DNA from: a virus
Direction: 5' to 3' (one strand)
IMG/VR virus record: IMGVR_UViG_3300024180_000005
Location: 1-64,000 of that record
Length of the DNA: 64,000 bases
The notes beneath the pieces were generated by a model, which worked only from the letters and a program-made list of their open reading frames with translations, was not told the DNA's origin and did not search any database. Within the stretch, counting starts at the first letter, position 1; each line of letters starts with the position of its first letter. Made by a program: the position numbers and the translations under genes. Shown here piece by piece: positions 2,195 to 57,380 of the stretch.

Positions 2195-2746
2195 ATGAAG
2201 ATTAGAAAATTTATAGAGTTCATAACAGAAGAATTGAATGATACTCCAGAGTCTTATATAGAGACTGCATTAAAGCAACTACAAAATAAGATAGGAAAGA
2301 TGTTTGAGGATCAAATAGAAATGGAAGATGAAAGAGAGGGTAATATTTCCATAGAAGATGCGAAGTCAAATTCAAAAGGTAAAAAAATTAGTTTTAAGGA
2401 TTTAGGAGTTCAATTGGAAAGTTCTGAGATATCTAAATATTCAAAATTATATGACTCACTTACTATAAAATTTAGTGATAGTAATTCAACATATAACATG
2501 TTACTTTTAATAGATTTAAAAGATGCGATGCCAAAGGATCCAGATAAAGATTTCTCATATAAAGATATCGAATCTTGTTTCATTAAGTTTAAAAAGTATG
2601 ATTTACAAACATTTGAGGTTATAGGGCAAATGACAAAGAATGTTAAGATTAAAGATATCGATGAAGAATTTTTAGTGGATCTTAAAATTGAACTTGATGA
2701 AGATTTTAGTGATGATGATGAAAAACTTGAAATAGAGACTGAATAA
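2195..2746 (+). CDS. Acidic hypothetical protein with CTS-like N-terminus (MKIRKFIEFITEE)
   Basis: ORF, late box, downstream terminator. Confidence 0.75.
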   Translation: MKIRKFIEFITEELNDTPESYIETALKQLQNKIGKMFEDQIEMEDEREGNISIEDAKSNSKGKKISFKDLGVQLESSEISKYSKLYDSLTIKFSDSNSTYNMLLLIDLKDAMPKDPDKDFSYKDIESCFIKFKKYDLQTFEVIGQMTKNVKIKDIDEEFLVDLKIELDEDFSDDDEKLEIETE

Positions 2747-2772
2747 AAACGACATAATTGTCGTTTTTTTTT
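2745..2772. terminator. Intrinsic terminator
   Basis: AAAAACGACA-taat-TGTCGTTTTT plus T-run. Confidence 0.75.
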
Positions 2773-2805
2773 GTTAGGAAACTAAATATTAATAATAAAT
2801 AGTAT

Positions 2806-3312
2806 ATGAGTGTAAATATAGTAACAAATTTTCAAATAATAAATAAAATAAAAAAATCTAGATATTTTAGAACTAATCTAGGTTTAGTAGCAACTGTTGA
2901 TAAAAATGGTTCTAGAAAGTATAATGATAAAGATTCTTTCTCAATGTTCTATAACTCACTTTATAACACTATAATATATGCACAGGGTAATATAGGTAAT
3001 ATAAAATTCTATACCGACCATTTCATACGTGATGAAGTTATGGCAGTTTATTTTGGAGATAACTTTGAAGAGTTTATATTCGATTGGGATGAAACTATTT
3101 TCAAAGAAAAAGGTATGGATTTTTATCTCGGACATATATTAAAAGAGGTTGAAACTAAATATGAGGAAAAATTATTAAAGGATGATTTAAAGAAAATTGA
3201 AGAAAAACCATTAGGTAATCCTGATTTAATATCACAGAACCCTGGTTCTGTATCATATGCTGACATACAGGCATATTTAGAAAAGAAAAGAAAAGAGAGG
3301 TATTCAGGTTAA
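2806..3312 (+). CDS. Hypothetical protein
   Basis: 168-aa ORF; TAATAAATA 4 nt upstream (2793-2801). Confidence 0.75.
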   Translation: MSVNIVTNFQIINKIKKSRYFRTNLGLVATVDKNGSRKYNDKDSFSMFYNSLYNTIIYAQGNIGNIKFYTDHFIRDEVMAVYFGDNFEEFIFDWDETIFKEKGMDFYLGHILKEVETKYEEKLLKDDLKKIEEKPLGNPDLISQNPGSVSYADIQAYLEKKRKERYSG

Positions 3313-3551
3313 TTATAGAGTATAGATGCTAAATATAAATAAACTAAGTATTTATCTTCTTTATCTAAATCATCAAAATCGTAACTAAGTTCTATATCCT
3401 CATCTTCTTGAAAGATATTTAGATATATCTTATTATCTTCCTTTACATACTCTATAGAATTAAATGTTGCTATACCAAGATCTAAGTCGATTATTAACTC
3501 AGTCAATCCAATACCCATTATACGGATCATCTTAGTAACCTTTCTTTTCAT
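3309..3551 (-). CDS. Hypothetical protein
   Basis: ORF; TAATATATA 4 nt upstream on minus strand (3556-3564). Confidence 0.7.
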   Translation of the reverse strand: MKRKVTKMIRIMGIGLTELIIDLDLGIATFNSIEYVKEDNKIYLNIFQEDEDIELSYDFDDLDKEDKYLVYLYLASILYN

Positions 3552-3643
3552 TATTTATATATTAAATAAAAGTAGATTTTTTTTTAGGAAGTGTCTTTTT
3601 GAATTGGTTTTTTAATATATACTAAAAAATAAATATTTTATTT

Positions 3644-4945
3644 ATGAATATACTTAAGTATGGTGATTATATCACAGAAAAGATGGCATACTCAATGATT
3701 TTAGAATCTAAGGTTGTACTTTCACAAAAGTTTATAAATCTTCTTACTAGAATGAAGAGTAATAATAAAATTGCCGCATCGATTTTAAGTTTTCAATCTA
3801 AGGATGTTGATGGTATTGCACAAAATTATATAGATTCAACAGATTCTAAAGAAGAATTATCTTTTACTCCGGATAGAAGAGTTCAACAGATGATAGAAGG
3901 TAAACCAGAATATTATAAAGTTACTAATTCAGGAAGATATCTTACACATAGTGATAGAAATAATAAAATATTCGAAAGACTTGGATATGATAAAGAAGGG
4001 AGATCCAATTGGGCACCAGATATGGGAACAATAGTAGAAATATTATCAGAAACACAAAGTAATGCTAGTAATAATACATATTGCATGGTTAAAGAAATAA
4101 ACCACACCGGTACTGAACCAAGAATTGGTGTAATAAACAAGGTAGCTATGCAAATTGATAGTGATGAATTCTTGGAAATATGGAAAACTGCTAGAAATCC
4201 TGTTAAAGTTGGTAGATTCGCTAGAGCATTTTTAACTAAGGCGAAAGTATCATTTACTGATCAAGATATTGAAGAGTTTGTAAATCAATACAAAGCAACT
4301 TATGACTTTGCCGCAGATATATTAAAACAATTTGATATTGTTCAAGGTTCTAAGATCACACACTGGTATTGGCATGAGAACTACCAAAATGGTGGTGGTA
4401 CTTTAAATAATTCTTGTATGTCCGAAGTAGATGAAGAGTGGCTTGATATTTATTCTCAAAATAATAATGTAAGTCTTGTTATTTTATATAATGATAATGG
4501 TGAGGTTAAGGATGGTAAATATGTTTCAAATTTAATAAAAGGTAGAGCCATTCTATGGGATTGTAAAATAGATGGGCAAAGTGCACAATTTATGGATAGA
4601 ATATACACAACACAAGATTCAGATGTAGTTCTTTTCAAACAATTTGCAGAGAAAAATGGTTGGTGGTATAAAACTGATCAATCTATGTCTCCTGAAGAGG
4701 ATATAACAAATGGTAGTTCTGTTAAAAGTGCAAAAATAGTAAGTGAATTGGGAAATTCTGACCTTCCTTATTTACCGTATATGGATACAATGTGTTTCAT
4801 AAATACAAGTAATGGAATAGTTGGTAACTCATTGAAAGTGGTAGATCCGGACAGAGAATTTGTAGATGATTATGAAGATTATGATGGTGCAATTAGAGTT
4901 GCCCGATCAACAGATGGTGAATGGTATACAGCTGACAACTACTAA
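3644..4945 (+). CDS. Uncharacterised phage protein (SCM / GRAxxW / FMDRIY / PYMDT motifs), paralog of 55620-57380, CTS-like N-terminus
   Basis: Colinear motifs shared with 55620-57380; starts MNILKYGDYITE. Confidence 0.8.
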   Translation: MNILKYGDYITEKMAYSMILESKVVLSQKFINLLTRMKSNNKIAASILSFQSKDVDGIAQNYIDSTDSKEELSFTPDRRVQQMIEGKPEYYKVTNSGRYLTHSDRNNKIFERLGYDKEGRSNWAPDMGTIVEILSETQSNASNNTYCMVKEINHTGTEPRIGVINKVAMQIDSDEFLEIWKTARNPVKVGRFARAFLTKAKVSFTDQDIEEFVNQYKATYDFAADILKQFDIVQGSKITHWYWHENYQNGGGTLNNSCMSEVDEEWLDIYSQNNNVSLVILYNDNGEVKDGKYVSNLIKGRAILWDCKIDGQSAQFMDRIYTTQDSDVVLFKQFAEKNGWWYKTDQSMSPEEDITNGSSVKSAKIVSELGNSDLPYLPYMDTMCFINTSNGIVGNSLKVVDPDREFVDDYEDYDGAIRVARSTDGEWYTADNY

Positions 4946-4963: not shown

Positions 4964-5212
4964 ATGAAACATATTAAAAAGTTCAATGAAATAAATGAAA
5001 GTACTGACTTTAAAGGAAATGATTTATTACGTTCTAAATTAGATGAGATTTACGAACTTCTTAAAGAAGAAATAAAATCATCTGAAATTGAAGACTTTTA
5101 TGATGCAGAAGAAATGATTAACAAATATGTCTCAAATCATCTAAGTGAAAAACTTTGGAGTGATAAAGATCTAGAGGATTGGATGAAGAAAAGAGAATTT
5201 GGTGAAGAGTAA
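4964..5212 (+). CDS. Small acidic protein with CTS-like N-terminus (MKHIKKFNEINE)
   Basis: ORF followed by terminator. Confidence 0.75.
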   Translation: MKHIKKFNEINESTDFKGNDLLRSKLDEIYELLKEEIKSSEIEDFYDAEEMINKYVSNHLSEKLWSDKDLEDWMKKREFGEE

Positions 5213-6845: not shown

Positions 6846-6849
6846 AAAT

Positions 6850-8742
6850 TTATTTTACTTCTTCAAAGTCTGCATCTTCTACTTTATCATCACTGCTTGA
6901 TTCACTAGACTCATTAGTATTATTCTCGGTTGCACTTTCTTGATACAATCTAGTACTAATCTCATTCCAACTCTCATTTAACTTTTGAGATGCCTCATCA
7001 ACCTTAGTAACATCTTTCTCACCATATGCAACTTTTAGTGATTCTAAATCTGTTTTTAAAGTAGATTTGTCTTCTTCGGTCAGCTTTTCTTCAAATTCTT
7101 TCATCTGTTTCTCGGTTTGGAATATTTGACTATCTGCTTGGTTTAATTTCTCAACCTTTTCCTTTTCGAGTCTATCAGATTCCGCGTTTGCCTCAGCATC
7201 TGCTTTCATTTTTTCAATCTCTTCTTTTGTAAGCTGAGATCCGCCTTCGATTCTGATTTTGTTTTCTTTACCAGTTGCTTTATCCTGTGCAGAAACGGAC
7301 AAGATTCCATTTGCATCTATATCTAAAGTTACCTCAATCTGAGGAACTCCTCTAGGTGCAGACATAATACCATCAAGGTTAAACTTACCTAATGAACGAT
7401 TATCTTTTGCCATTGGTCTTTCTCCTTGTAGAACATGTAGCTCTACTGATGGTTGATTATCTGATGCAGTTGAAAAGGTTTCACTCTTTCTTGTTGGAAT
7501 TGTTGTGTTTGCCTCAATCAATTTTGTGAATACACCACCCATCGTTTCAATTCCTAATGATAAAGGAGTTACATCTAATAAAAGAACATCTGTAATTCCA
7601 CCATTTAATACCGCACCTTGAATAGCAGCACCTAAAGCAACAACTTCATCAGGATTTACTGATTTATTAGCTTTCTTACCAATGAACTTCTCGATACCTT
7701 CTTGTACTGCAGGAATTCTTGTAGTACCACCTACTAAAATTACTTCATCAATATCACTCACTTCCAGATCCGCATTTTTTAATGCACTCTTTGCACATGC
7801 AACTGCTCTATCAACCAAAGGTGTTATCATTTGCTCGAATTTGGCTCTTGTCAATTTTTTAACAAAGTGTAATGGTAATCCATCTTGTGCAGTAATATAC
7901 GGTAGGTTTATTTCAGATTCAGATGTTGATGATAATTCAATCTTAGCCTTCTCTGCAGCTTCTTTCAATCTTTGTAATGCCATTGGATCTTTTGCCAAGT
8001 CCATTGAATGTTCAGATTTAAACTCTTCTAACATCCAATTGATTATTTCATTATCAAAATCATCACCACCTAAGTGAGTATCACCGTCAGTAGATTTAAC
8101 TTCAAATACACCATCACCTATCTCCAATACAGAAACATCATGAGTTCCACCACCACAATCAAAAACTAGTATTTTAGAATCTGAGTTTTTCTTATCCAAA
8201 CCATATGCCAATGCTGCAGCAGTTGGTTCATTGATAATTCTTTCCACTTTTAAACCTGCAATCTCACCAGCTTCAATAGTTGCTGTTCTTTCCGCATCTC
8301 CGAAGTAAGCCGGAACTGTAATAACCGCTCTAGTAACTTCATGTCCTAAATAATCTTCGGCAGTTTTTTTCATTTTCTGTAAAATAATTGCAGAAAGTTC
8401 TTGAGGTGTATAATCACGACCATCAATGTTTACAACAGGTACATTTCCTTTTTTAGATTTCTTAACCTCATAAGGAACACGCTTTACTTCATCTGTACAA
8501 ACAGAATAATCCTTTCCAATAAACCTTTTAATAGAGTATATTGTATTTTTTGGATTTGTAACTGCTTGTCTTTTTGCAGGATCACCTATTTTTCTATCAG
8601 TTCCCGAAAATGAAACAATTGATGGTGTTGTTCTTCTCCCTTCAGAATTACTAATTACTACAGGTTCTCCGGCCTCAACAACTGCACAGGCCGAATTTGT
8701 TGTTCCGAGATCAATCCCGATAATTACATTACTTTTACTCAT
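6850..8742 (-). CDS. dnaK: Hsp70 chaperone DnaK
   Basis: [52 protein letters not shown]-terminal DADFEEVK. Confidence 0.98.
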
Positions 8743-9577: not shown

Positions 9578-9721
9578 TTATTTTATAATTATTTCGGTTC
9601 CAATTCCTCGACCAGTTTTTTTATAAAAAGGAACCCATTTATATCCACCATTTTTCGAAAATCTTCTAATTTTAATCTTACCTCTTTTTCTTTTAAAATC
9701 ATTAAAATTTTTTAATTTCAT
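9578..9721 (-). CDS. Small basic protein (MKLKNFNDF...)
   Basis: Likely start ATG 9721 overlapping the end of the upstream gene. Confidence 0.45.
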   Translation of the reverse strand: MKLKNFNDFKRKRGKIKIRRFSKNGGYKWVPFYKKTGRGIGTEIIIK

Positions 9722-9923
9722 CTTCCCATTCTTTTTTTGATATAGACATAGTTGATTTATTAAAGTGTTTATGTGCATCATTTTGCTCTTTTGTTCCTCG
9801 ATTGAAGTTCCAAAACTTTGCAACTTCAGAAGAACATTGTAGTATGACAATTAGTCCACCACCATCTGTTCTGTAAAGGTACTCTCCACAGAGAGAGCAC
9901 CTGTACTTTTCAATCTTAGTCAT
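9702..9923 (-). CDS. Small Cys-containing hypothetical protein
   Basis: RCSLCG; packed downstream of the RNA ligase. Confidence 0.6.
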   Translation of the reverse strand: MTKIEKYRCSLCGEYLYRTDGGGLIVILQCSSEVAKFWNFNRGTKEQNDAHKHFNKSTMSISKKEWEDEIKKF

Positions 9924-11170: not shown

Positions 11171-11195
11171 AGAAATTTATTTTAATATATAATAT

Positions 11196-11840
11196 ATGAA
11201 GTATATAAAACAGTTTGAAAACTTTCTAATAAATGAGGGTAGGTATGATAAAATAAGTAATGAGATATCATCTAGTATATTTAATCACTGGAAAAATGAT
11301 TTTTTATCAGGTGAAGTGGAATCTACTTTTGAAGATACTTTTGAAAATAAAGATTTGTATATCGACATAGTAGCAGTTATTAACTTTTCAAAGGATTATG
11401 AGAAAGGTTTAACTATTGATGCTGGTGCTGATGAATCAACTAATTATATTGAAGTTTGTTTTGAGGTAAACCCAGATTTACTCCCAAGATTTTGGCAAGA
11501 AATATCTATGAATTTAAAAGATGTTATTAGACATGAAATTGAACATCTTACACATGGAGATGGTGAAAACTTAAACCCATATAAAAAAATGGAAGATGAT
11601 AGATTCATAAGAGATATGATTTCTGCAAAGATTTTACCTAAATCCATGTATTTTAAGTTGGAAAAAGAAATAGATGCTAATCTACAGGGAATGTATTTTA
11701 GAGCAAAAAAAGAACACAAACCACTTTCAGATATAATCAACCAATATTTAGATTTACAAGATATTACAATTGATGAGAAGAATGATATACTAGATCTTTG
11801 GAGAAAGAGGGCAGAGATTCTTAATCTACCTAATTTTTAA
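11196..11840 (+). CDS. HExxH putative metalloprotein with CTS-like N-terminus (MKYIKQFENFLINE)
   Basis: RHEIEH...EIDA zincin-like motif; late box 11183-11191. Confidence 0.7.
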   Translation: MKYIKQFENFLINEGRYDKISNEISSSIFNHWKNDFLSGEVESTFEDTFENKDLYIDIVAVINFSKDYEKGLTIDAGADESTNYIEVCFEVNPDLLPRFWQEISMNLKDVIRHEIEHLTHGDGENLNPYKKMEDDRFIRDMISAKILPKSMYFKLEKEIDANLQGMYFRAKKEHKPLSDIINQYLDLQDITIDEKNDILDLWRKRAEILNLPNF

Positions 11841-15869: not shown

Positions 15870-16925
15870 ATGAGTGATTATTATAGCATTTTAGGCGTCG
15901 ATAGAAACGCCAGCGAAGAACAAATCAAGAAAGCTTATAGAAAGAAAGCGATGGAATTCCATCCTGATAAAAATCCAGGCAACCCTACAGCTGAAACAAA
16001 ATTCAAAGAAGCGGCTGAAGCATATGATGTACTTTCAGATGCTGGTAAAAAGTCTAACTATGACAATTATGGTTCTACTAACGGAAATCCTTTCGGAGGT
16101 GGTGGTAATCCATTCGGTGGTCACGGATTTGATATGGAAGATATCTTCTCTCAATTTGGAGATATTTTTGGAAATAGAGGTGGTAGACAACAAAAAAGAC
16201 AAAAAAAGGGATCTGATTTGAGAATTAAGGTGGTTCTTAATATAGATGAGATACTAAAAGGTTGTACTAAAAAATTAAAATATAAAAGACAAGTAAAATG
16301 TGATCCTTGTAATGGTCAAGGTGGTACTGATATACGAGAGTGTTTAACTTGTAATGGTCGTGGACACAGAATCGTTGTTCAGAATACACCATTTGGTCAA
16401 ATGAGAACCGAAACAACTTGTCCAGATTGTAATGGTAGTGGTAAACAAATTAAAAATAAGTGTAATCATTGTCATGGTGAAGGAACTCAATTAAAAGAAC
16501 AAGTTGTTGATGTTGAAATACCTGTTGGTGTTTCAACGGGTATGCAACTTACTATGCAACAATTTGGTAACTATATCAGAGATGGTATTGCAGGTGATTT
16601 ACAGATAATAGTTGAAGAGGCACAGGATTTTTCATACAAAAGAGAGAATAATAATATCATAGTTGAGAAAACCATTTCTGTTATTGATGCAATATGTGGA
16701 TCACACATTAAAGTTTCAACACCAAATGGTGAAATGTCAGTTTATATAGAACCAGGAACAACACATGGTAAGACTCTAAGAATAGGTGGTAAAGGAATTC
16801 CTGATATACATTATGGATTAGGCGACTTATTTATCAGAATAAATATTAAAATACCAAAAAATATTGATTTAGACGAGAAACATCTTTTAGAGAAACTAAA
16901 AGATTCTAAAAACTTCCAAGTCTAA
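15870..16925 (+). CDS. dnaJ: Chaperone DnaJ
   Basis: J-domain HPD, G/F-rich linker, four CxxCxGxG repeats, C-terminal domain. Confidence 0.97.
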
Positions 16926-40655: not shown

Positions 40656-40812
40656 TCTTATTATAAAGTTTATCAATAGAGTTCTTTCTTTTCCAAGATT
40701 TTGAAGAAGCCATATTCTGAATATTTTTTATTATATCAGCATCTATGTTCTTTGCGAGTTCTTCAGAAAGAATCTTCAGAAGTTCATCTTCTACGTTTAT
40801 GTTATCTTTCAT
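40639..40812 (-). CDS. Unannotated 57-aa protein resembling a major-capsid (gp23) helix
   Basis: MKDNINVEDELLKILSEELAKNIDADIIKNI...KRKNSIDKLYNKIKDVE*; ATG overlaps the acetyltransferase stop. Confidence 0.65.
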   Translation of the reverse strand: MKDNINVEDELLKILSEELAKNIDADIIKNIQNMASSKSWKRKNSIDKLYNKIKDVE

Positions 40813-42009: not shown

Positions 42010-42087
42010 TTTAATATTATATTTTTTATTTATTGGTTGTGTTTACTCAATATTTACTATCTTTATAAGATAGTTTAATGGTAAAGT

Positions 42088-42852: not shown

Positions 42853-43562
42853 AGGTTATTAATCATTTTATCTATTTCCAATTTATATTGTGAATATGGT
42901 CTAAGTGAGTGACAATCTATATAATATCCCTTTTTTAAGGTATCAATATCATAAACCCAATTAGATCTATCAATCCTATTCATAGCCATACCATATTTCC
43001 AACCTCTCTCAGTTAGATATATTTTATCTCTATAATTAAACTCATTAACACATTTACCGAAATAAAGTTCATCAGTATCCCATCCCTGTTCAAACTTTGA
43101 CAACCTATCACAATATTCACCAAATTCACATTTTAAATCCAAAACATCGTTAAATATCTGACCTTTGCCAACATTATAGCATAACGGATATCTAGTTGTG
43201 TTATAAGCATCTGAACTTAATATAGCCAAACTATCATCATTTAGTTCATTAACTATATTATTAAAATAATAATGACTGAGAGGTAGCATATCTATATCGG
43301 ATGTTATACAAACATCATCTAGGTAATATTTTGTTATATACATTCTAACAATTTGTGACTGAAAGGCTGTTGAATAACCATCAACTGATTTTACTTCATG
43401 TATTATATGGTCGTCATTATCGGTAACTAAATCCTTATCAGATATTAAAACTAATATAGGTTTTATTTTAATTAATTTAATCCAAAGATCCCTAACAATT
43501 GGCCAGAAATCCAAATACATAGGATTACTATCAGAAGCTACTATCGCGTAATCAATTTTCAT
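42843..43562 (-). CDS. Putative glycosyltransferase (DxD)
   Basis: SQIVR, TSDIDMLPL, YPLCY, WDTDE, RIDR, DCHSLRP. Confidence 0.65.
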   Translation of the reverse strand: MKIDYAIVASDSNPMYLDFWPIVRDLWIKLIKIKPILVLISDKDLVTDNDDHIIHEVKSVDGYSTAFQSQIVRMYITKYYLDDVCITSDIDMLPLSHYYFNNIVNELNDDSLAILSSDAYNTTRYPLCYNVGKGQIFNDVLDLKCEFGEYCDRLSKFEQGWDTDELYFGKCVNEFNYRDKIYLTERGWKYGMAMNRIDRSNWVYDIDTLKKGYYIDCHSLRPYSQYKLEIDKMINNLWI

Positions 43563-43571
43563 TTATATGTA

Positions 43572-44234
43572 TTAAGTTTTTAATTTTTTTAATTTATTTT
43601 CTAATTCATTCATTATTCTAACATCACCAGTTCTATCACCAATAGTTTTACATCTAAAATGAAAATAATCAAAAATATTATCCGGGACCGGAGTATTTTT
43701 TATATCCAACCTTTTAGAAAAAGTTGGATAAATTCCAATATCTCTTAATAAACAAGCAAGTGCTACATCATCTATAAACTGATGATTCCATTTATTTCTA
43801 TTTTCTACTACTTTTTCAACTAAATCTTTGGATATAAAATATCCACAACCACTAGCGAAATTTATATCACCATGATTACCTATAATACCGTTATAAAACT
43901 CATTAAAAGGTTTATCATCTAAATAGTCAACTAACTTCTCAATATTAACATAACTGCTACTATTGGTCCTAAAGATATAATCAAAATTATTACCTTTTAA
44001 TAAAATCTCAAAAGCTCTAATAGTTTTATACCCTATATTATTATAACCTTCCGGATAGTTTGTTATTATTTTATCTTCATAAATGTACTCATCTTGCCCA
44101 CCATGGTAAAAAAATACTTTTACATTATCTAGATTATGATTTGCCCAAGTTTTTTTTATACAATTCTCCAACATAACATAAGGTTCTTGATAATGACTCA
44201 ATACCAATATTATTACATTTTTTCTATTTGACAT
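43572..44234 (-). CDS. Putative GT31-like glycosyltransferase
   Basis: KT..AF, FDYIFRTNSSSY, FASGCGYFISKD, DDVAL. Confidence 0.7.
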   Translation of the reverse strand: MSNRKNVIILVLSHYQEPYVMLENCIKKTWANHNLDNVKVFFYHGGQDEYIYEDKIITNYPEGYNNIGYKTIRAFEILLKGNNFDYIFRTNSSSYVNIEKLVDYLDDKPFNEFYNGIIGNHGDINFASGCGYFISKDLVEKVVENRNKWNHQFIDDVALACLLRDIGIYPTFSKRLDIKNTPVPDNIFDYFHFRCKTIGDRTGDVRIMNELENKLKKLKT

Positions 44235-44238
44235 TATC

Positions 44239-44913
44239 CTAAAAATTTTTTATTATTTTCCAAAAATCAGGATGTCTCTCATTATTTGAATCAAAAACAT
44301 CACCAACAAATTCATAATCTACTCTTTTAGATGGGAATAATCTAGTCTCTCCACCAAAATTCAAACCAAATTCTGAATGCTCCATCGCCGTATTGGTGAT
44401 AAGTGAATAAACACATTTTCCTAAAAAGTCTTGATCAATTCCCTTTCTCTGAAACTGATTCCAACCTTCAATTAATTTAATTATTTCAATTTTTCTCATT
44501 AATCCATTTCGTGAACCCCACATACCACCCAAAATAGGAACCGTATGATAAGGGTGATCTCTCATTATGTGAAAATCTTTATCTGATTCTAGCCACTCAT
44601 TTACGGCATTTACTTCTCTCTCAGATATTCTAGAGTCACAATCTCTGGATAAAAATATATCAACATCTAAATCCTCAGATGCCCAGAATCGCCAAAACAT
44701 ACCGTGGAATGAGTCCTTTGAATCCACTAATATAACCTCAACATTATCACCTTTAATTGTTTCTATTAATTCTGTTTTTGAATTTTTATCAATATAAAAT
44801 CTACAAATCCAACCGGGATAATAAATTTTAGACAATTCTATATTTTTTAGTGCACCAACCCAATACATTGGGTCATCACCCCAAAGACTATAAGCTATTA
44901 TATTTTTAGACAT
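44239..44913 (-). CDS. Putative glycosyltransferase
   Basis: YSLWG, YPGW, MFWRF, RDCDSR, MRDHPYH, GGMWG, DQDFL. Confidence 0.7.
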   Translation of the reverse strand: MSKNIIAYSLWGDDPMYWVGALKNIELSKIYYPGWICRFYIDKNSKTELIETIKGDNVEVILVDSKDSFHGMFWRFWASEDLDVDIFLSRDCDSRISEREVNAVNEWLESDKDFHIMRDHPYHTVPILGGMWGSRNGLMRKIEIIKLIEGWNQFQRKGIDQDFLGKCVYSLITNTAMEHSEFGLNFGGETRLFPSKRVDYEFVGDVFDSNNERHPDFWKIIKNF

Positions 44914-45646
44914 TTAATAAATTTATTTTTTCTATAACACGATCAAACCTAGATTTATTAGGTATTTTATGAATAGGAGAAACTATGCTATCAACAAATC
45001 TTTCTCTTTGATGCCACATATGTATTATAGTATTATTTAGTAGATTTGTTGTCTGAAATTCCTCACCAAAAACAGGTTCTAAATATTTAAATTTTATTCC
45101 ATTGTCTTTCAAAACCCACATAAAATCATAATAAGGCTCTGTTTCTGGCTTCCAAATCATACCCAAAGGTTTACCAGAAGATCCAAATTCCATATTATAC
45201 TCATAGTGTGAATGATTTCTTTTCTCATATGGATAATCCTCTATCCATTCCTTTTTAAATTGTGGAATTTTTTTCCTATTATGCCAAGTGTCTATACATT
45301 TTCTATTCATTATCATAAAAAATGAATTAAGCGCCATGTGATTACCACTCCTATACTCAAAATGACCATCTGGAGGTCCGGCAATATCAATATTATTATC
45401 TTCCATTTCTTTAATAAGATTTATTATCTCATCATTAGATGTTATAAAACAATCTTCGTCTATATGTACATACCAATCTGATTCAAAATCTTTTGAAAAG
45501 TTCAACCAATCATACCAAACCATAAACCATCCCTTTCTACCATCGAATTTAATATGATTAGAATCTGGGAAATTTTTTCTTATACATTCATCTTGTGTTT
45601 TTTGTATATCTGAAAATGTACTTGTTGTAAAAAATGTTATTTTCAT
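44906..45646 (-). CDS. Putative glycosyltransferase (DxD)
   Basis: HIDEDCF, NSFF, EPYY, HMW. Confidence 0.6.
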   Translation of the reverse strand: MKITFFTTSTFSDIQKTQDECIRKNFPDSNHIKFDGRKGWFMVWYDWLNFSKDFESDWYVHIDEDCFITSNDEIINLIKEMEDNNIDIAGPPDGHFEYRSGNHMALNSFFMIMNRKCIDTWHNRKKIPQFKKEWIEDYPYEKRNHSHYEYNMEFGSSGKPLGMIWKPETEPYYDFMWVLKDNGIKFKYLEPVFGEEFQTTNLLNNTIIHMWHQRERFVDSIVSPIHKIPNKSRFDRVIEKINLLNV

Positions 45647-46374
45647 ATTTTAATATTTATTTTTGTTGTTTCGATGAATTTTTTTATCTGTGTACAAAAT
45701 AATCCATCCTTCCCTCTTAAATAATCATCTGGATTAGAAGTTATAGAATCATCTATTCTCCAAACACCACCTAATTTAATCATATCAGAATAAAAGAAAC
45801 TTGCAAATTCGGTCCAACTGATATAATCATAGTTTGTCTTATGTGTACGGTGGTTTATAATCTCATTTTCTATATGATATATTTTAATCCCTAAACGATT
45901 AGCAACCATAGGTAACCAAAAATCCCACCATGGCATTCCAATTACATAGTTTTTATTGTAAAAAAGTTCAATATTTTTTTTATCAAAAATAAACAAATCA
46001 TATCCATCGGGAAATGGGTAAGAAGGGACATCACCCAATTCCCATCTCGTTGCTATAACTAAGGAATCATCAAAGAATTTATTTAGTTTTATTTTTTTAT
46101 TAAGTATAATATCAGAGTTAACTATAGCACATTTATCAGTATTAGTCAATTTTATAGCATCTAATATAGCATCTAATCTTACCAAAGTTTTTTTATCAAC
46201 CTGAAATGTTTTTCTGGTCTTAACTATGTTAACATCAGGATATAAATCTTTTATAATTTCTATCTCTTCTTCCGTATTTACGGTATAAACATCATATTCC
46301 TTACACCAAGAATCGATTGCCTCTTTTTGTGCATCAAAATTACCATATGGGTTTATTGTTGTAAATACTTTCAT
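45643..46374 (-). CDS. Putative glycosyltransferase-fold protein
   Basis: IVNSDI, GYDLFIF, GMPWWDFW; within GT cluster. Confidence 0.6.
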   Translation of the reverse strand: MKVFTTINPYGNFDAQKEAIDSWCKEYDVYTVNTEEEIEIIKDLYPDVNIVKTRKTFQVDKKTLVRLDAILDAIKLTNTDKCAIVNSDIILNKKIKLNKFFDDSLVIATRWELGDVPSYPFPDGYDLFIFDKKNIELFYNKNYVIGMPWWDFWLPMVANRLGIKIYHIENEIINHRTHKTNYDYISWTEFASFFYSDMIKLGGVWRIDDSITSNPDDYLRGKDGLFCTQIKKFIETTKINIKI

Positions 46375-47078
46375 TAATTAACTTCCAATCTTTTTTCAAC
46401 AGACATAGATTGTCTATTCTTCCAAGTAATATCATCTTCACCCCATTTAGCATTATAAGCTTGGTCTGCTTGGTCTGCTTCTCTTTTACCGGCAGCGTAA
46501 TGTAAATGTTCAAACATCGTCTCATCGTTCAACCTATCGTCGTAAAGTAGGTTTAAATCTTTTAAATTATTATATAACTCACAGTCGCTAAACATGTGGT
46601 TGTATGCGGGATGGTATATAACTCCATTCATTTTTCTTAAACAACCATAAGTCATTATAGGAATAGTAATGGCAGGATGTAACATATTAGATGAGTCTGG
46701 TAATTGATAGCCATCTCTAACCATCAATCCAACATCTCCTTTCCCTTCTAACTTATTAGTTAAGTACGTGTCCCATCCTTGTGGTGCCATAAAGTCATCG
46801 CTTGCAAAGATAACAATATCACTATCTTCACATTTACCCATCTTAATACCTAAGTTAGAAGATAATTGATAGGATGGATAACAAACACCAATCTTATTTG
46901 TATTTAATGTAATTAAAAAGTTATTTTTTAAATAATCTTTTAATTCTGTAGCCTGTTGTTCCCAATTAACCGCAACGTAGGTTTGTATATTTGATGGATT
47001 ATCTGCTCGTTTAATCCATTCAGTGTGCATTTCTTTAAATTGTTGAGGGCGAATTGTTGCCCATAAAATGTGTATCAT
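46374..47078 (-). CDS. GT2-like glycosyltransferase
   Basis: ATIRP, ASDDF, TIPIM, YHPAY, FSDCE, FEHLH. Confidence 0.7.
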   Translation of the reverse strand: MIHILWATIRPQQFKEMHTEWIKRADNPSNIQTYVAVNWEQQATELKDYLKNNFLITLNTNKIGVCYPSYQLSSNLGIKMGKCEDSDIVIFASDDFMAPQGWDTYLTNKLEGKGDVGLMVRDGYQLPDSSNMLHPAITIPIMTYGCLRKMNGVIYHPAYNHMFSDCELYNNLKDLNLLYDDRLNDETMFEHLHYAAGKREADQADQAYNAKWGEDDITWKNRQSMSVEKRLEVN

Positions 47079-47184: not shown

Positions 47185-49302
47185 TTATTCATCTTTTTTC
47201 TTTCTTGGCTTCCTAGTGGCCTTTTCTATAATAACAAATGATTCATCATCTTCTTTGTTATAATCTAGTAAGAATTTTGTCCCTTCTTTTGGATTATTCT
47301 CAATGATATAATCTGTTACAATATCATCAACCCATCTTTGAATTGCCCTCTTTAAAGGTCTAGCACCATATTTAGGATCATACCCTACTTCAACTAAGTG
47401 ATCTTTCAAAGTTTCAGTTATTTCAGTTGGGTAACCAATATCTGCAGCCCTTTTAACAGTTTTAACTAACTCTAAGTCTACAATTTTAAGAATCTCTTCT
47501 TTACCTAAATCTCTGAAGTAGATAATTTCATCAATTCTGTTGATAAACTCTGGTGCGAATTTGTTTTTCAACTCTTTCTCTAGGATACCTTTGATTTCTT
47601 CATCTCTTACATTTTCTTTATTCTTTGTAGAGAATCCAACTCCTGTACCGAAATCTTTAACTAATCGAGTACCTACATTTGAAGTCATTAAGATAATACA
47701 GTTTTTAAAACTTACTTTTCTTCCGTGTGAATCGGTAACTTGACCATCATCTAACATCTGTAAGAATAGGTTAAATACTTCTGGATGTGCTTTCTCAATC
47801 TCATCAAAAAGAATAACTGAATAAGGCTTTCTTCTAATTCTATCAAGAACATTGGTATCTTCATAGCCAACATATCCTGGTGCAGAACCTTGTATTTTAG
47901 ATAAAGAGATTTTATCCATATATTCTGACATATCTAATCGAATCAAAGAATCTTCAGAATCAAATAAATATTTTGCAATTTGTTTAGCTAACTCGGTTTT
48001 ACCAACTCCCGAATTACCAATAAGCATTCCAGAAAAAACCGGCTTGTTAGCATCTTTCATACCAACTCTACCTCTTTGAATTGCTCTTACAACTTTCTTA
48101 ACGGCATCATCTTGACCAATAACCTTTCCACAAATCTCAGAACCCATCTTAGCAAGTCTTGTATTTTCTTTCTCACCAACTTTTTGTAAAGGAATACCAG
48201 TCATCATAGAGACTACTTGTGCAACATTATCCTCGGTAACTATTTGTTTATTTCTAGAAGATTCTTCTTCCCAGTCTTTTCTTGCCTTTTCTAAACTCTC
48301 ATTTAATTGACGTTCAACATCTCTTAATTTAGCAGCATCTTCATATTTCTGTGATCGAATAACTTCATTTTTCTTCTCTTTTATATCGGCTATTTTATTC
48401 TCAATATCTGTAATTTCTTTAGGAACTACAATATTTGAAATATGTACTCTTGATCCGGCCTCATCTAGTGCATCAATTGCCTTATCTGGTAAAAATCTAT
48501 CGGTAATATATCGATCTGTTAAATCAACACAAGCCTTAATTGCTTCTGTTGTATATTCAACATTATGGTGAGACTCATATTTATCTTTAATATTATTTAA
48601 GATTTCCATACTTTCTTCAGAAGAAGCAGCCTCAATTGTAACTTTTTGGAATCTTCTTTCTAAAGCACCATCTTTCTCAATATGTTTTCTATACTCATCA
48701 AGTGTAGTTGCACCAATGATTTGTATCTCACCTCTTGCCAATGCTGGTTTAAACATATTAGATGCATCCATTGATCCAGAAGCACCACCGGCACCAATCA
48801 TTGTATGAATTTCGTCGATAAATAAAATAACATCCGTATTTTTCTCCATCTCTGTCATAAGAGCTTTAATTCTTTCTTCAAATTGTCCTCTATATTTAGT
48901 ACCAGCAACCATTGACGCCAAGTCTAGCATAACAACTCTTTTATTGAAGAGAATTCTACTTACTTTTCTTTGAATAATTCTTAAAGCTAATCCTTCTGCT
49001 ATAGAAGATTTACCTACACCTGGTTCACCAATTAAAATTGGATTATTCTTTTTTCTTCTTGCTAAAATTTGAGAAACTCTTTCGATTTCTTTCTCTCTTC
49101 CAACAATTGCATCAAGTTTACCATCTTCTGCCATTTTAGTCAAATCTCGACTATATGTATCTAGAACCGGAGTTTTAGACTTTGCGTCAGTTTTTTTACC
49201 TGAACTATAAGAACTATCATCATCATCATCATCAAATGTCGCCTTCATATTTGGCAATCCTTTAAGGTATTCATCCCCTTTTGATTTTTTATTATTTCCC
49301 AT
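47185..49302 (-). CDS. clpC: ClpC-type AAA+ unfoldase lacking the Clp N-domain
   Basis: GEPGVGKS, KYRGQFEER, IDEIH, UVR-like YEDAAKLRD, GNSGVGKT, ClpP-binding GVGF loop, GARPLKR. Confidence 0.9.
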   Translation of the reverse strand: MGNNKKSKGDEYLKGLPNMKATFDDDDDDSSYSSGKKTDAKSKTPVLDTYSRDLTKMAEDGKLDAIVGREKEIERVSQILARRKKNNPILIGEPGVGKSSIAEGLALRIIQRKVSRILFNKRVVMLDLASMVAGTKYRGQFEERIKALMTEMEKNTDVILFIDEIHTMIGAGGASGSMDASNMFKPALARGEIQIIGATTLDEYRKHIEKDGALERRFQKVTIEAASSEESMEILNNIKDKYESHHNVEYTTEAIKACVDLTDRYITDRFLPDKAIDALDEAGSRVHISNIVVPKEITDIENKIADIKEKKNEVIRSQKYEDAAKLRDVERQLNESLEKARKDWEEESSRNKQIVTEDNVAQVVSMMTGIPLQKVGEKENTRLAKMGSEICGKVIGQDDAVKKVVRAIQRGRVGMKDANKPVFSGMLIGNSGVGKTELAKQIAKYLFDSEDSLIRLDMSEYMDKISLSKIQGSAPGYVGYEDTNVLDRIRRKPYSVILFDEIEKAHPEVFNLFLQMLDDGQVTDSHGRKVSFKNCIILMTSNVGTRLVKDFGTGVGFSTKNKENVRDEEIKGILEKELKNKFAPEFINRIDEIIYFRDLGKEEILKIVDLELVKTVKRAADIGYPTEITETLKDHLVEVGYDPKYGARPLKRAIQRWVDDIVTDYIIENNPKEGTKFLLDYNKEDDESFVIIEKATRKPRKKKDE

Positions 49303-50301: not shown

Positions 50302-51235
50302 ATGGATATAATAGTTAGATTAAAAAACCATAATACTAAACTATCAATTTCTAATTTAGAATTATATAAAAATGATAGTTCTAAACTAAATTTTAGATGT
50401 GAGTGTGGTTATGAATGGTCTGCAGTATACAGAGATATATTGAGATCAAAAAGAAATAATGGTTGTGTAAAATGTCAAAAAAGAAGTAAATCTGAAAGAG
50501 TATATACTTTATCAAATGATGTTTATTTAAAAAGAGTTAATGAATATTGGGGGGGATAAGATTGAAGTTTTGGAAGAGTATAAAAAGGGAGAAGATAAAA
50601 TTAAAATTTTATGTAAAGTTTGTGATAATGTATGGAATCCAACTGCTAGATCATTATTGAGAGGAAACGGATGTCCAAAATGTGGACATGAGAAAACAAA
50701 ATTATCTCGTATTAAAAGTAATGAAAAATATTTAGAAGAGTTGAAATATGTTCATGATGATAGAATAACTTTAATCGATAAATATATTAATAGTAATACA
50801 AAAGTTAATTTCAAGTGTTGTTTGTGTGATAATACATGGTTAGCCAATCCTAACATGATATTAAGAGGAAGAGGTTGTCCAAAGTGTAAATTTTCCAAAG
50901 GTGAGTTATTAATTTCAAAATTATTAAAAGATATAGATATAGAATTTAAGGAACAATTTATTATAAAAGGATTAAAAACTAACAAAGGTGGTACACCTAG
51001 ATTTGATTTCGCAATTTTTGAAAACAATGTTTTAACAAAAATTATTGAATATGATGGAATTTTACATTTTGAACCTGTTAATAAATTTGGAGGATTAAAA
51101 AGACTAAAAGAACAAAAAGAAGTTGATGATTTTAAAAATAAATATTGTATCAAAAATAATATTAAAATGATAAGGATACCATATTATGACATTTCAAAAA
51201 TAGACATTGAATATCTAAAAAATAAAATTATTTGA
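50302..51235 (+). pseudogene. Zn-ribbon-repeat PD-(D/E)XK/Vsr-like endonuclease split by a G7 run at 50549-50555
   Basis: Removing one G fuses 50302-50559 and 50540-51235 (...NEYWGDKIEV...); three CxxC..W...GCxKC repeats, SKGE, RFDF, IEYDGILH, IRIPY. Confidence 0.8.
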
Positions 51236-52152: not shown

Positions 52153-52228
52153 AATACTATTTATAAAAAATTATGTTTTGTGTTTTAAAAATAGTAAAAT
52201 TTAATATTACACATTTAATATATATGAT

Positions 52229-52663
52229 ATGAAATATTTAAGATTTTTTGAAGCAAAGGACGATTTGGAAAAAGACCATATACTAACTTCTTTAAAAGCA
52301 TATATGAAAGAGGTTGACAAAAACTGGAACTATATAACTCCACTAGATCTCAAAAAAGATTTGGACAAAGATCCGAATAAATACTTTCTACTTGATATAA
52401 GAAAACCAGAAGATTTCAATACTGGTCACATTAAAGGTTCAAAGAATATCTTTTGGAAAGAATTGCTTGAAAATTTAGACAAACTTCCTAAAGATAAAAA
52501 AATAGTTTTAATATGTTATGTTGGACATACATCAAGTCAAATGTTGATTTCTCTTCGCATGTTAGGATATGATGTTATATCATTGAAATTTGGAATGGGA
52601 GTTTCCCCAGTAGAAGGAGTGCCTGTTTCGGGGTGGCTTGATTATGGATTTCCTGTAAAATAA
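52229..52663 (+). CDS. Rhodanese-like protein with CTS-like N-terminus (MKYLRFFE)
   Basis: LLDIR...GHIKGSKNI...ICYVGHTS...GW; late box 52216-52224. Confidence 0.85.
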   Translation: MKYLRFFEAKDDLEKDHILTSLKAYMKEVDKNWNYITPLDLKKDLDKDPNKYFLLDIRKPEDFNTGHIKGSKNIFWKELLENLDKLPKDKKIVLICYVGHTSSQMLISLRMLGYDVISLKFGMGVSPVEGVPVSGWLDYGFPVK

Positions 52664-54764: not shown

Positions 54765-54815
54765 AAATCAAAGATAAGTAATCTTTTTCGAATGAACAAA
54801 TTTAATATATAAAAT

Positions 54816-55613
54816 ATGAGTGGAATAGTAAGTAAACAAATTTTAAATAAAAACATTTTATTTTATTTCGATGCTGCAAATAAAAAATCATACGATGGTT
54901 TTAGTAATTTAGGATATAGTCTTGTTTTAGGGACAACCGCATCTTTATTAACCGGAGTTACCTGGAGTTCAAGTAATGTAGGAGTTATGAATTTCAATGG
55001 TACTTATTCAATCGGTTTAACAACATATGCGGTAGATTCATGGATTAGTTGTGGTGATAGAATACCTGTTATTGCACCAAGTTTCCCGATAACATTAGAA
55101 GCATGGATAAAACCAAGAAAACTTAATGGTGGGACAGGTCCTGTTACTCAAGGAATTTTTGCATTAGATTCTATGGAACAGTTTCCCGGAAATTATTATG
55201 GTGTTGAAATTGTAATAACTCCAAATGATGGTTCTGATACTATGAATTTAGGTGCTGGATATTATAATGGTAGTGGGTATGGTGTTGGTTCAAGAAGATC
55301 CGGGACTACTAGTATTAGACCTGTTATATGTGGTGTTTGGAATCATGTTGTTGCGGTGATTGCGGGTTTAAATGATATAAGATTATATGTAAATGGTGTT
55401 AGTGTTTCAAGTACACTTTCTGGTTCAGGCACGAGCTTAGTATGGAGTGGTGGTTTAGGTAAAACTGTTATAGGTAAAACTGCTGGCTACTATAAATATA
55501 TTTTTGATGGTGACATTGCGATGGTTAGAGCATATAATGAATCATTAAGTATTGATGATGTTAAAAGTCAATATAATCTACATACCATAAGATTTGGATT
55601 AAAATCAATATAA
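54816..55613 (+). CDS. LamG/ConA-like domain virion protein
   Basis: FDAANKKSY, TLEAWIKP, WNHVV, LYVNG, FDGDIAMVRAYN; late box 54803-54811. Confidence 0.8.
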   Translation: MSGIVSKQILNKNILFYFDAANKKSYDGFSNLGYSLVLGTTASLLTGVTWSSSNVGVMNFNGTYSIGLTTYAVDSWISCGDRIPVIAPSFPITLEAWIKPRKLNGGTGPVTQGIFALDSMEQFPGNYYGVEIVITPNDGSDTMNLGAGYYNGSGYGVGSRRSGTTSIRPVICGVWNHVVAVIAGLNDIRLYVNGVSVSSTLSGSGTSLVWSGGLGKTVIGKTAGYYKYIFDGDIAMVRAYNESLSIDDVKSQYNLHTIRFGLKSI

Positions 55614-55619
55614 ATAAAG

Positions 55620-57380
55620 ATGATTGAAAAATATAATGAGTTTATTTTAGAAAGGATGATTAAAGAGTCTACTCTTTATGTATCTCCTGATATACTTAAA
55701 AGGTTACAAAGTATTAATAGTGAAATATCAAATGATTTATTAAACCAGTTAGGACAAAATGTAAAACCAGATGTGACTTTCTTAGATGGAAGTGATAAGG
55801 ATGGTGAACTCACTTTCATCACTATGAGGAATGCCGTTAAAAAACTTTCAAACCTTTATAATGGAAATGATAGTCTTGTTAAAAATATTGAGAATCCGGT
55901 TGGTGTAAATGCCACAAAGTATGCAATGGATGTTTCTAAAATGTTGATGAGTGATGATCCTGGATTCTGGACTCAATCAAGAAACCCTATAAAAATAGGA
56001 AAACTTATAAGAAAAATATTCCCTGGTAAATATTCAGATGTCGATATTGAAAAGTTTGTAAATGAATTTAAGAGTTCTAGTGAAAAGGATGCTGAAAAAT
56101 TTATATTAGTAGAAGGAGAAGATATTGATAAATATTATTGGTACGAAAGTTATCGAGAGGAAAAAGGTGATTTAGGAAGATCTTGTATGTCTAGAAAGAA
56201 GAACTTATTCGATATCTATGTTAAAAATCCAGATGTTTGTAAACTTTTAGTTCTTTTAGAGAATGATAAAGTAATAGGAAGATCACTTATTTGGAAAATA
56301 TTTAGTAATAATAAATCTAATGATATTGAGTATTTTATGGATAGACAATATACTATTGAACAATCAGATGTTGTTAAATTTCAAAAATATGCAAGTAATA
56401 AGGGTTGGGCTTACAAAACATATAATAACCACTATAGCTTTTCAAAAATAACATTCAATGGTGAAGAGTTTTATTGTGATATTATCGTTAAAGTGGATCC
56501 CGAAGATTATGAATATTATCCTTATATGGATACTTTCAGAAGATACAATTTTATAACTGGTGAACTTTTCAATGATGACGATATATCTAATAATGGTGGT
56601 CAATATCTATTAGATGATACTGAGGGTGATTTTACTGAAATAGAAGATGGTAAATGGTCTGAATTTCTTCAGCGTATGGTTAATAGTGAAAATGCGGTTT
56701 GGTCGGAACCATACGGTGATTATTTAGATGAGACTAGTTCGGTTTATATAGCAAGTGGAGATTTTGAAGGTTGGTATTATGAGGAGGATGATGATATCAT
56801 ATACTCGGATTGGGAAGAACGTTATATTCATATAGACGATTGTTTTTATTCTAATGATATGGATGAATATATTTTAAGTGAAAATGCAGTAGAAGGTGTT
56901 TATAAGATATTAGATGATCTTACTTTTGAAGTAAGTTTCTATCATGAACGTGATGATGAATTGATGACTGTGGATAAGGAATTAGACTGGTATAAAGTTC
57001 TTTGTGAAAAAAATAGTAATTGGACTAATGTTGATTTTATAAAAAATGACTTAATGAAAAATAACTATAAAAGTTTTCCTAAAAAATTCCTAGTTCATGT
57101 TTATAAAGCTGAGGAAGAAGAAGTGTATCTAACCGTAAGGGATGCTAAGATATTAGGTTTTAAATTTGATAAAGAAGATAAAAAAGAAATATGTGACTTT
57201 GAATATCATAAAAAATTAGAAGATGCTAAACTATTAAGTATTTTGATTGATAAACTTGTAAATGATCTTATTCCAAATACAGAAAATATTGCAGATGAAG
57301 GAGAAGATGATATGAAGAAAATGTATCAAGATCGTATTGATAGAGTTTGGAATAGAATGCCAAATAGTTATGAGGGATAA
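55620..57380 (+). CDS. Uncharacterised SCM/FMDR/PYMDT-motif protein with acidic C-terminal region, paralog of 3644-4945, CTS-like N-terminus
   Basis: KIGKLI, DIEKFVNEFK, SCM, GRSLIW, FMDRQYT, YPYMDT. Confidence 0.8.
   Translation: MIEKYNEFILERMIKESTLYVSPDILKRLQSINSEISNDLLNQLGQNVKPDVTFLDGSDKDGELTFITMRNAVKKLSNLYNGNDSLVKNIENPVGVNATKYAMDVSKMLMSDDPGFWTQSRNPIKIGKLIRKIFPGKYSDVDIEKFVNEFKSSSEKDAEKFILVEGEDIDKYYWYESYREEKGDLGRSCMSRKKNLFDIYVKNPDVCKLLVLLENDKVIGRSLIWKIFSNNKSNDIEYFMDRQYTIEQSDVVKFQKYASNKGWAYKTYNNHYSFSKITFNGEEFYCDIIVKVDPEDYEYYPYMDTFRRYNFITGELFNDDDISNNGGQYLLDDTEGDFTEIEDGKWSEFLQRMVNSENAVWSEPYGDYLDETSSVYIASGDFEGWYYEEDDDIIYSDWEERYIHIDDCFYSNDMDEYILSENAVEGVYKILDDLTFEVSFYHERDDELMTVDKELDWYKVLCEKNSNWTNVDFIKNDLMKNNYKSFPKKFLVHVYKAEEEEVYLTVRDAKILGFKFDKEDKKEICDFEYHKKLEDAKLLSILIDKLVNDLIPNTENIADEGEDDMKKMYQDRIDRVWNRMPNSYEG

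Follow-up and report, generated by a model that had tools for sequence, protein, structure and literature searches.

The first 64 kb of the IMG/VR virus record IMGVR_UViG_3300024180_000005 (80,218 bp, 29% G+C), a stretch of 64,000 nucleotides that we refer to as the window, code for a series of proteins that have mostly unrelated bodies and begin with the same peptide of about ten residues. Comparison with related genomes supports the view that this peptide is a portable N-terminal tag, a module that acts at the level of the peptide and is carried by unrelated proteins including enzymes. The observation is real, and it is larger than in the initial annotation of this DNA, which had listed thirteen such starts. 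As to function, the best explanation, to which we give an even chance of being right, is that the peptide would be a capsid-targeting tag of the type known from phage T4, enlarged in use. The nearest records by identity in the recombinase UvsX (72, 70, 53 and 46%) are the uncultured phages LR756502.1, LR745206.1, LR756504.1 and LR756501.1, with genomes of 642, 634, 636 and 735 kb. Lak phages come next.

A position matrix describes the long form of the tag as M-K-[YH]-[LI]-K-x-[FY]-[EN]-E-[FS] over residues 1–10, with no information beyond residue 10. The most conserved hydrophobic positions of this form are position 4, which is Leu or Ile in 96% of the tags, and position 7, which is Phe or Tyr in 96%. 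Glutamate stands at position 8 or 9 in 87%, and F/Y-x-E fills positions 7–9 in 50%. The strict regular expression MK.[ILV][KR].[FY][ENDQ] matches twelve times across all six frames of the record, and all twelve matches lie at the start of an open reading frame (ORF), where a tag of the T4 type is expected. The initial annotation had named an equal frequency in shuffled ORFs as a reason to drop its claim. Shuffling the residues within each protein (2000 shuffles, maximum 1 match) gave an expectation of 0.01 matches, whereas the window has 6 and the record 11. In LR756502.1 the same expression occurs 58 times, nearly always at the first Met of ORFs that are 45–356 residues long. At a matrix score of at least 12, the tag is present at 113 of the 1072 ORF starts of the record and LR756502.1 together (12 of 110 ORFs in the record, 101 of 962 in LR756502.1) and at 3 of 3654 internal Met sites. 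If a weaker short form and two tag-only stubs are included, about 21 of the roughly 110 genes in the record, or about a fifth, are tagged. The members in the window are as follows, with matrix scores where the long form applies.

2195–2746, plus strand: 183 residues, short (T4-like) tag MKIRKFIEFITEE; TAATATATA box at 2182–2190, 4 nt upstream of the ATG; the LR756502.1 orthologue retains the tag (MKIRKFTEFINEE); no Pfam or PHROG family found for the protein.
3644–4945, plus strand: 433 residues, short tag MNILKYGDYITE; box at 3613–3621, 22 nt upstream; the orthologue carries MNIKKYDDYISE.
4964–5212, plus strand: 82 residues, long tag MKHIKKFNE followed by INE; score 28.9; no box of its own, directly behind 3644–4945.
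11196–11840, plus strand: 214 residues, long tag MKYIKQFENF followed by LINE; box at 11183–11191; score 25.4.
24444–25223, plus strand: exonuclease of 259 residues, weak tag MILRYEQLNE; RNase_T domain from residue 34; box at 24431–24439; the orthologue begins MVSIKRFGQLNE.
25220–25282, plus strand: tag-only stub of 20 codons (MKYLRYND...); score 10.6.
30276–30566, plus strand: 96 residues, MKILRFEDFE, similar to the short form; first gene of a tagged array of five; box at 30263–30271.
30581–30901, plus strand: 106 residues, long tag MKYLKRFNE followed by AINE; score 29.1.
30905–31432, plus strand: 175 residues, long tag MKNIKTYEGF; score 24.0; weak tagged homologues in LR756502.1.
31436–32344, plus strand: 302 residues, long tag MKYLKLYEQF followed by RLILE; score 26.0; no match in Pfam or PHROG searches.
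32363–32650, plus strand: 95 residues, long tag MRYLKTFENY; box at 32350–32358; score 17.3.
32704–32733, plus strand: 9-codon stub that consists of the tag only (MKYLKKDSF, then stop), last in the array.
52229–52663, plus strand: rhodanese of 144 residues, long tag MKYLRFFEAK; Pfam domain from residue 38; box at 52216–52224.
55620–57380, plus strand: 586 residues, short tag MIEKYNEFILE, the closest match in the window to T4 MKTYQEFIAE.
9578–9723, minus strand: doubtful; MKLKNFNDF from an internal Met (about 47 codons), overlapping the ORF at 9702–9923; left out of the member count.

Twelve of the thirteen starts in the initial annotation are thus found on the plus strand with the peptides it gave, but the thirteenth (9721, MKLKNFNDF) is doubtful because it lies on the minus strand inside an overlapping ORF. 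Further members lie past the window at 65430, 75547, 75987, 76399, 77284, 77606, 78033 and 79440 of the record. The two tag-only stubs (25220–25282 and 32704–32733) each close a run of tagged genes and are likely remnants of lost cargo genes.

The weaker examples at 2195, 3644, 24444, 30276 and 55620 represent a second, related form that is shorter, [KR]-[FY]-x-x-[FY]-[ILV]-x-E, which is retained by the LR756502.1 orthologues of three of them (2195, 3644 and 24444). Counted within the first 17 residues, [FY]..[FY][ILV].E has 3, 25 and 29 matches in three genomes as compared with 0.45, 2.6 and 1.85 expected, about 7- to 16-fold above the internal rate; its window members are 2195, 3644 and 55620. 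A trailing [IL]-x-E is present in about ten window members and occurs in the short form as well. The long form reads as the short motif with three extra residues in front, and there are forms intermediate between the two (for example MKHVNKFSEFITEE). We also considered a secretion signal peptide. Positions 5–6 and 8–14 are mostly Lys, Glu, Asn, Asp or Ser, and the basic start is not followed by a hydrophobic core of seven or more residues, so this candidate was rejected.

The proteins behind the tag are diverse. With residues 1–14 removed, BLAST sorts the 113 tagged proteins into 87 clusters, 78 of which are singletons. The description of the bodies as unrelated is therefore mostly right, but real paralogue groups exist, namely families of 14, 5 and 4 members and the pair 75550/76004. 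A single paralogue family with a conserved N-terminal domain does not fit these clusters, nor the presence of the tag on several unrelated Pfam folds. For most tagged proteins, searches of PHROGs and Pfam came back empty: a Pfam domain is present in about 9 of 109, and about 90% have no recognizable one. The domains that were found, lysozyme, RNA ligase, rhodanese, SET, HNH, Toprim and DUF6576, are mutually unrelated. Among the enzymes proposed initially, the exonuclease (RNase_T) and the rhodanese are confirmed by Pfam, but the HExxH protein and the "SCM/PYMDT paralogues" find no confirmation in Pfam or PHROGs. An AlphaFold model of the rhodanese assigns residues 1–10 a predicted local distance difference test score of 46, as compared with more than 90 for the domain; in this model the tag is a low-confidence appendage outside the rhodanese fold. 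The tagged proteins are mildly acidic, with a median isoelectric point of 4.8–5.6; the basic isoelectric point of T4 internal proteins was looked for among them and not seen. Roles of the cargo in anti-defence or host takeover, as suggested at the outset, are speculation.

The tag comes and goes between orthologues. In LR756502.1 both the RNA ligase and a small zinc-ribbon-like protein have it, and in the record both are without it. The rhodanese family has 544 homologues, and its members start with the long tag, with a tag in the T4 register (MKKFHQFINE, MKKYNQFINE), with a third peptide (MKIYKIA or MKIIKIS) or with none. In a 476-kb phage this third tag is shared by the rhodanese and four unrelated neighbours, which indicates that the tag follows the genome and not the protein family. 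Together, the unrelated folds, the gain and loss of the tag and the re-tagging of rhodanese between lineages bear out the portability proposed by the initial annotation. The third peptide was observed in two IMG/VR contigs (476 and 296 kb, 39% G+C; L307 and L308), where M-K-[IL]-I-[KR]-[IV]-[SA] begins five ORFs, namely the rhodanese homologue and four neighbours unrelated to it. In other genomes, many homologues of the rhodanese begin MKIYKIA or MRIYRVA. To judge from these starts, the peptide looks like a second, lineage-specific address tag.

Several observations indicate that selection acts on the peptide. Synonymous codons within the tag vary about as they do elsewhere (His: 26 CAT, 31 CAC; Lys5: 42 AAA, 37 AAG; Leu: 42 TTA, 19 CTA, 8 CTT, 7 TTG), and the amino acid substitutions within it are chemically conservative. 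This combination of free synonymous variation and conservative replacement points to the peptide as the unit under selection and eliminates a nucleotide-level motif such as a promoter or an initial transcribed region. The tagged genes also belong to a particular expression class. In LR756502.1, 40 of 101 tagged genes and 64 of 861 untagged genes have the box TAATATATA no more than 12 nt from the ATG, usually at 4–8 nt (p = 2e-16), and the portal gene of this phage carries it too. The Bacteroidota host-type element TAnnTTTG precedes 76 of the 861 untagged and none of the 101 tagged genes. We infer that the box is a "late" (T4-late-like) element. The predicted enrichment of the tag among box genes is therefore found, and the link between tag and box is real, but it is not exclusive: of the 19 boxes in the window, 14 are followed by an ATG at a distance of 4 nt, and the genes so placed include 6 with the tag and 8 without it, which shows that such genes do not require the tag.

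The comparison with T4 could be made residue by residue. MKTYQEFIAE is confirmed as the start of both IpII and IpIII. According to published mutagenesis, targeting depends on residues 4 and 7 and processing on residues 8 and 10, and Asp in the cut position blocks processing (PMC9026906). In T4, the pattern M-K-x-[FY]-x-x-[FY]-I-x-E selects IpII, IpIII and one 54-residue ORF; in LR756501.1 it selects the starts of six ORFs, among them MKTFNQFINE and MKKFNSFINE; the reversed pattern has no match in either genome. These exact-register tags (MKTFNQFINE as compared with MKTYQEFIAE) substantiate the likeness to the T4 sequence that the initial annotation had drawn. LR756501.1 is without the long tag and has the short form M-I-K-K-[FY]-x-x-[FY]-I-N-E in 36 of 538 ORFs, with 7 expected. 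The two T4 targeting positions, 4 and 7, are hydrophobic or aromatic in the long form too, a match by pattern. The 54-residue ORF of T4 (OL964735.1, 16753–16917, minus strand) is hypothetical, lies beside the primase gene and begins MKTFKEFIKE in the register of the IpII and IpIII targeting sequences.

Complete relatives also possess the head machinery on which such a tag would depend. A gp21-like protease and a gp23-type shell are encoded in LR756502.1 and in the IMG/VR relative G007; the 80-kb record contains no head genes. In LR756502.1, two tagged genes are followed by the portal (phrog_213), a head maturation protease and a capsid protein of the Gp23 family (PF07068, 99.5 bits), and a gp55-like late sigma factor is encoded near these head genes. 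The protease belongs to phrog_207 (E = 6e-28), is 27% identical to residues 42–145 of T4 gp21 (pairwise E = 2e-4) and keeps the GExxHP and VSSR motifs. A search for the maturation site of the LR756502.1 capsid protein by BLASTP against T4 gp23 gave a weak alignment of the N-termini (E = 0.016) in which no Glu is paired with the T4 site, and I-N-E at residue 43 counts as a candidate site only. Pieces of these proteins occur elsewhere. On related megaphage contigs, ORFs of 74–179 residues match segments of the LR756502.1 capsid protein (5–48, 30–87 and 504–555) and of the protease; they lie in the IMG/VR records behind L040 (G002) and L106 (G007), and the window interval 40639–40812 may be compared with them. 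Such ORFs could represent decoys, or modules similar to propeptides that have become attached to other proteins.

If a protein is enclosed together with a protease specific for [IL]-x-E, its body should avoid this motif. In the bodies of 138 tagged proteins the ratio of observed to expected [IL]-x-E is 0.91. Untagged proteins, sampled in sets of the same size, gave 1.12 ± 0.055 (z = −3.85), and none of 3000 such sets was as low. At the same time [IL]-x-D is raised (z = +2.55), and Lys, Asn, Gln or Ser in place of Glu, as well as other spacings, make no significant difference. Since Asp in the cut position blocks processing in T4, a shift from Glu to Asp is the form of avoidance to be expected. 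A replicate with IMG/VR loci (337 tagged and 1003 untagged ORFs) gave 1.03 as compared with 1.18 ± 0.033 (z = −4.6), with Asp, Lys and Asn flat. This depletion fits an exposure of the tagged proteins to a gp21-type protease. The [IL]-x-E sites within the tags favour Phe at P4, Asn at P2 and Ser, Ala or Gly at P1′, to be compared with F-I-A-E followed by Ala in T4, and the F/Y-N-E-S of the long form has the same P2 and P1′ preferences.

How might such a tag work? Late in infection, many small, fast-evolving proteins and a few enzymes would be made, with their first ten residues forming a short amphipathic segment. The hydrophobic positions 4 and 7 would dock the protein on the scaffolding core of the assembling prohead, and the gp23-type shell would then enclose it. 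The gp21-type head protease could cut after the Glu at or just behind the tag, that is, after F/Y-N-E before Ser or after F-[IL]-N-E before Ser, Ala or Gly. The mature cargo would stay in the head and pass into the host together with the DNA. In this scheme the docking, the enclosure, the cutting and the injection are inferred. Capsid targeting would account for several features at once: the resemblance to T4, the head module, the membership of tagged genes in the late class, the portability of the tag and the avoidance of the protease motif.

A number of observations weigh against this explanation. With more than 100 kinds of cargo protein per genome, the system would far exceed every known case of capsid targeting. 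The 80-kb record has no portal, protease, capsid or terminase gene, so that its head module has to be read from relatives that are 46–72% identical in UvsX. The protease match to Pfam Peptidase_S77 reaches 20–23 bits, below the curated cut-off of 27, and two tag-bearing IMG/VR contigs with estimated completeness of 91 and 98% have no full-length match to the LR756502.1 capsid protein or protease. Most long-form tags have no clear cut site, and cutting the common form MKHLKKFNES would require Phe or Tyr at P3, which is not known for gp21. The initial annotation had made a trailing [IL]-x-E part of the motif; the shared peptide of residues 1–10 stands, but the trailing element, frequent as it is in this record, is not general in the clade (24% of tagged and 19% of control N-termini). 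The tags of other lineages (MKIIKIS) contain neither aromatic residues nor Glu, and Lak phages, which belong to the same broad clade, are without the tag. The depletion of [IL]-x-E is modest (13–19%) and is not significant in LR756501.1 (n = 55). Since it was measured on crude gene calls (longest ATG ORFs, picked greedily), we regard it as supportive and not decisive. No isolate came up when three tagged proteins were compared by tblastn with 50,697 phage records; the only matches were to two uncultured megaphages.

A degenerate DNA pattern for the tag was found in at least 120 IMG/VR stretches with a median G+C of 29%, on contigs of up to 640 kb; among the matches listed, 334 of 349 tags stand at the first Met after a stop codon. 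The tag pattern occurs 58 times in LR745206.1, 26 times in LR756504.1, 11 times in LR756500.1 and not at all in LR756501.1 and Lak-A2, and the reversed control pattern is absent throughout. In cellular genomes (596 Gb), most matches stand alone and some lie inside ORFs, and on this ground a general feature of host translation was rejected. The only clusters are on low-GC contigs of metagenome-assembled genomes (MAGs), each with many tagged ORF starts, and these contigs are probably phage DNA binned with the MAG. Six of them (L160, L188, L203, L210, L241 and L275), assigned to a "Candidatus Muiribacterium halophilum" MAG, contain arrays of tagged paralogues (MKYIRTFNESTN) with 21-residue repeats, whose lengths run from 203 to 413 in steps of 21 residues; these too are probably megaphage DNA binned with a bacterial MAG. 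A full-text literature search for the peptide letters gave unrelated papers only, and none of the papers listed joins "capsid targeting" with megaphage terms. We thus found no published description of the tag.

Among other explanations, the one that ranks second, although we consider it unlikely, is that the tag is an address for some other late-stage partner that differs from lineage to lineage, such as an assembly chaperone, the phage DnaK/DnaJ/GrpE system, a site on the tail or baseplate, or an intracellular compartment. Lineage-specific tags on one and the same cargo would suit any receptor that co-evolves with its tag, basic residues flank the hydrophobic ones, the record codes for DnaK, DnaJ and an FtsH-like protease, and the lack of a T4-type cut site in most long-form tags would be no difficulty. 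On the other hand, an address of this kind explains neither the specific avoidance of [IL]-x-E with its shift to [IL]-x-D nor the exact-register matches to the T4 tag. Moreover, Lys-Lys between two hydrophobic positions is untypical for the core of an Hsp70-binding site, as known from DnaK motifs. The remaining three readings are less likely again. The tag could be the best-kept part of one huge, fast-diverging superfamily of paralogues that spread by tandem duplication and has no role in sorting. Tandem arrays, the clear paralogues noted above, the lack of Pfam domains in about 90% of tagged proteins and the tag-only stubs, which point to rapid gene turnover, are all compatible with this idea. 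Yet it is improbable in view of the unrelated folds behind the tag (rhodanese, RNase_T, RNA ligase, lysozyme, SET, HNH), orthologues that differ in tag presence, the different tags on rhodanese in different genomes and the 78 singletons among 87 clusters.

We find it somewhat more improbable still that the tag serves expression from leaderless or near-leaderless late mRNAs, its ten codons being conserved for the sake of initiation or early elongation and not for sorting. The late-type box does end 4–8 nt before the ATG of many tagged genes, and AAA is over-used at codon 2. Synonymous sites are free, however, while chemically similar residues are kept; 8 of the 14 window genes with a box 4 nt before the ATG are untagged; many tagged genes lie inside operons without a box; and matches in cellular genomes are mostly isolated and partly ORF-internal, with clusters only on low-GC contigs where tagged ORF starts recur as they do on the phage contigs. 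Nor would such a signal give any reason for the depletion of [IL]-x-E. The least probable of the four is a degradation signal that keeps late accessory proteins short-lived and is read by an AAA+ protease (FtsH, ClpXP or Lon) of the phage or the host. Some N-terminal ClpX signals begin with Met, a basic and a hydrophobic residue, and an FtsH-like protease is encoded in the record, but nothing links this protease to the tag, and neither the resemblance to the T4 tag nor the avoidance of the gp21 motif would be expected from a degron.

The source of the window is a marine megaphage of which the record is a fragment, as judged from its synteny with LR756502.1. Al-Shayeb et al. (2020) placed the four largest genomes in their Mahaphage clade, with Bacteroidetes as predicted hosts (PMC7162821). 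By UvsX identity, the closest kin of the source phage are the "Mahaphage" genomes of 634–642 kb, with the same predicted hosts. DNA of the record is present in seawater metagenomes of 2018. In metatranscriptomes, six runs share 46–83% of sampled words from the tagged array, as contigs only, so that the presence of RNA is indicated by word shares alone. Besides UvsX and a helicase, the record encodes an RnlA-type RNA ligase, a gp32-like single-strand-binding protein, several homing endonucleases, DnaK (6850–8742, minus strand), DnaJ (15870–16925, plus strand) and the FtsH-like AAA protease (47185–49302, minus strand). Four genes resemble HNH or homing endonucleases (26499–28253, minus strand; 34587–36548, plus strand; 50540–51235; and 13659–14894 of L001), and the two large ones, of 584 and 653 residues, match one and the same LR756502.1 gene. 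A run of seven genes of similar size, about 190–250 residues each, occupies 41428–47078 on the minus strand. The gene at 60283–61485 (minus strand) encodes an M28-type peptidase-like protein (Pfam M28, 30.8 bits); a phrog_4191 protein of the same family is encoded at 229975–231351 of LR756502.1, two genes downstream of the capsid gene.

Returning to capsid targeting, we can extend the proposal, somewhat more tentatively, to Bacteroidota megaphages at large: they may load more than 100 proteins, or 10–20% of their genes, by means of an expanded T4-type tag with lineage-specific address variants, and deliver them with the DNA. The injected cargo would include enzymes, namely rhodanese, RNA ligase, lysozyme and SET and HNH proteins. 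If this were true, the principle of T4 targeting, known from a few proteins, would prove to be old and able to scale up, and the set of proteins that uncultured giant phages inject could be taken straight from their genome sequences. A tag that loads heads would give a function to a large share of the "dark" genes in the largest known phages, and would turn a genome into a list of injected proteins as candidates for anti-defence or host takeover. Natural short tags for T4-type heads could also serve for packaging foreign proteins in phage capsids. Even without a destination in the capsid, a portable ten-residue address on at least a tenth of the proteome is unusual for a virus.

The T4 capsid targeting sequence, MKTYQEFIAE of IpII and IpIII, which is removed by the prohead protease gp21, is similar in many respects. 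Both sequences start at residue 1, span about ten residues and open with M-K; both have hydrophobic or aromatic residues three apart and then Glu, move between unrelated proteins and mark fast-evolving cargo genes. Homologues of gp20, gp21 and gp23 are encoded in the relatives, and LR756501.1 has copies in the exact register. In contrast to T4, the form in the window is three residues longer in front and often without the I-x-E processing end, it marks 10–20% of all genes instead of three ORFs, it is attached to enzymes, and it is known here from sequence alone. Encapsulin cargo-loading peptides offer a second parallel, in which a short portable peptide brings unrelated enzymes into an HK97-fold shell; those peptides are usually C-terminal, have another motif, are not removed by a protease and do not lead to delivery into another cell. 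The giant phages phiKZ, 201phi2-1 and SPN3US carry long N-terminal propeptides on head and ejection proteins, and dozens of head proteins are cut after Glu by a gp21-family protease; these propeptides are thought to direct the proteins to the prohead (PMC5694885). Most of them are about 80 to more than 250 residues long, share no short motif and are cut at A/S/G-x-E, unlike the shared ten-residue consensus described here. A long propeptide of this type was rejected for the tagged proteins, since conservation ends at residue 10, the domains begin at residues 34–38 and A/G/S-x-E is not depleted in the bodies. The internal-protein loci of T-even phages are hyperplastic and have starts similar to the targeting sequence on unrelated basic proteins (PMC9026906, section 3.1). 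These loci are likewise arrays of unrelated small genes with high turnover that have only a targeting start in common. They comprise a few genes per genome, in contrast to more than 100 tagged genes in the complete relative, mostly acidic in their products and spread over many arrays.

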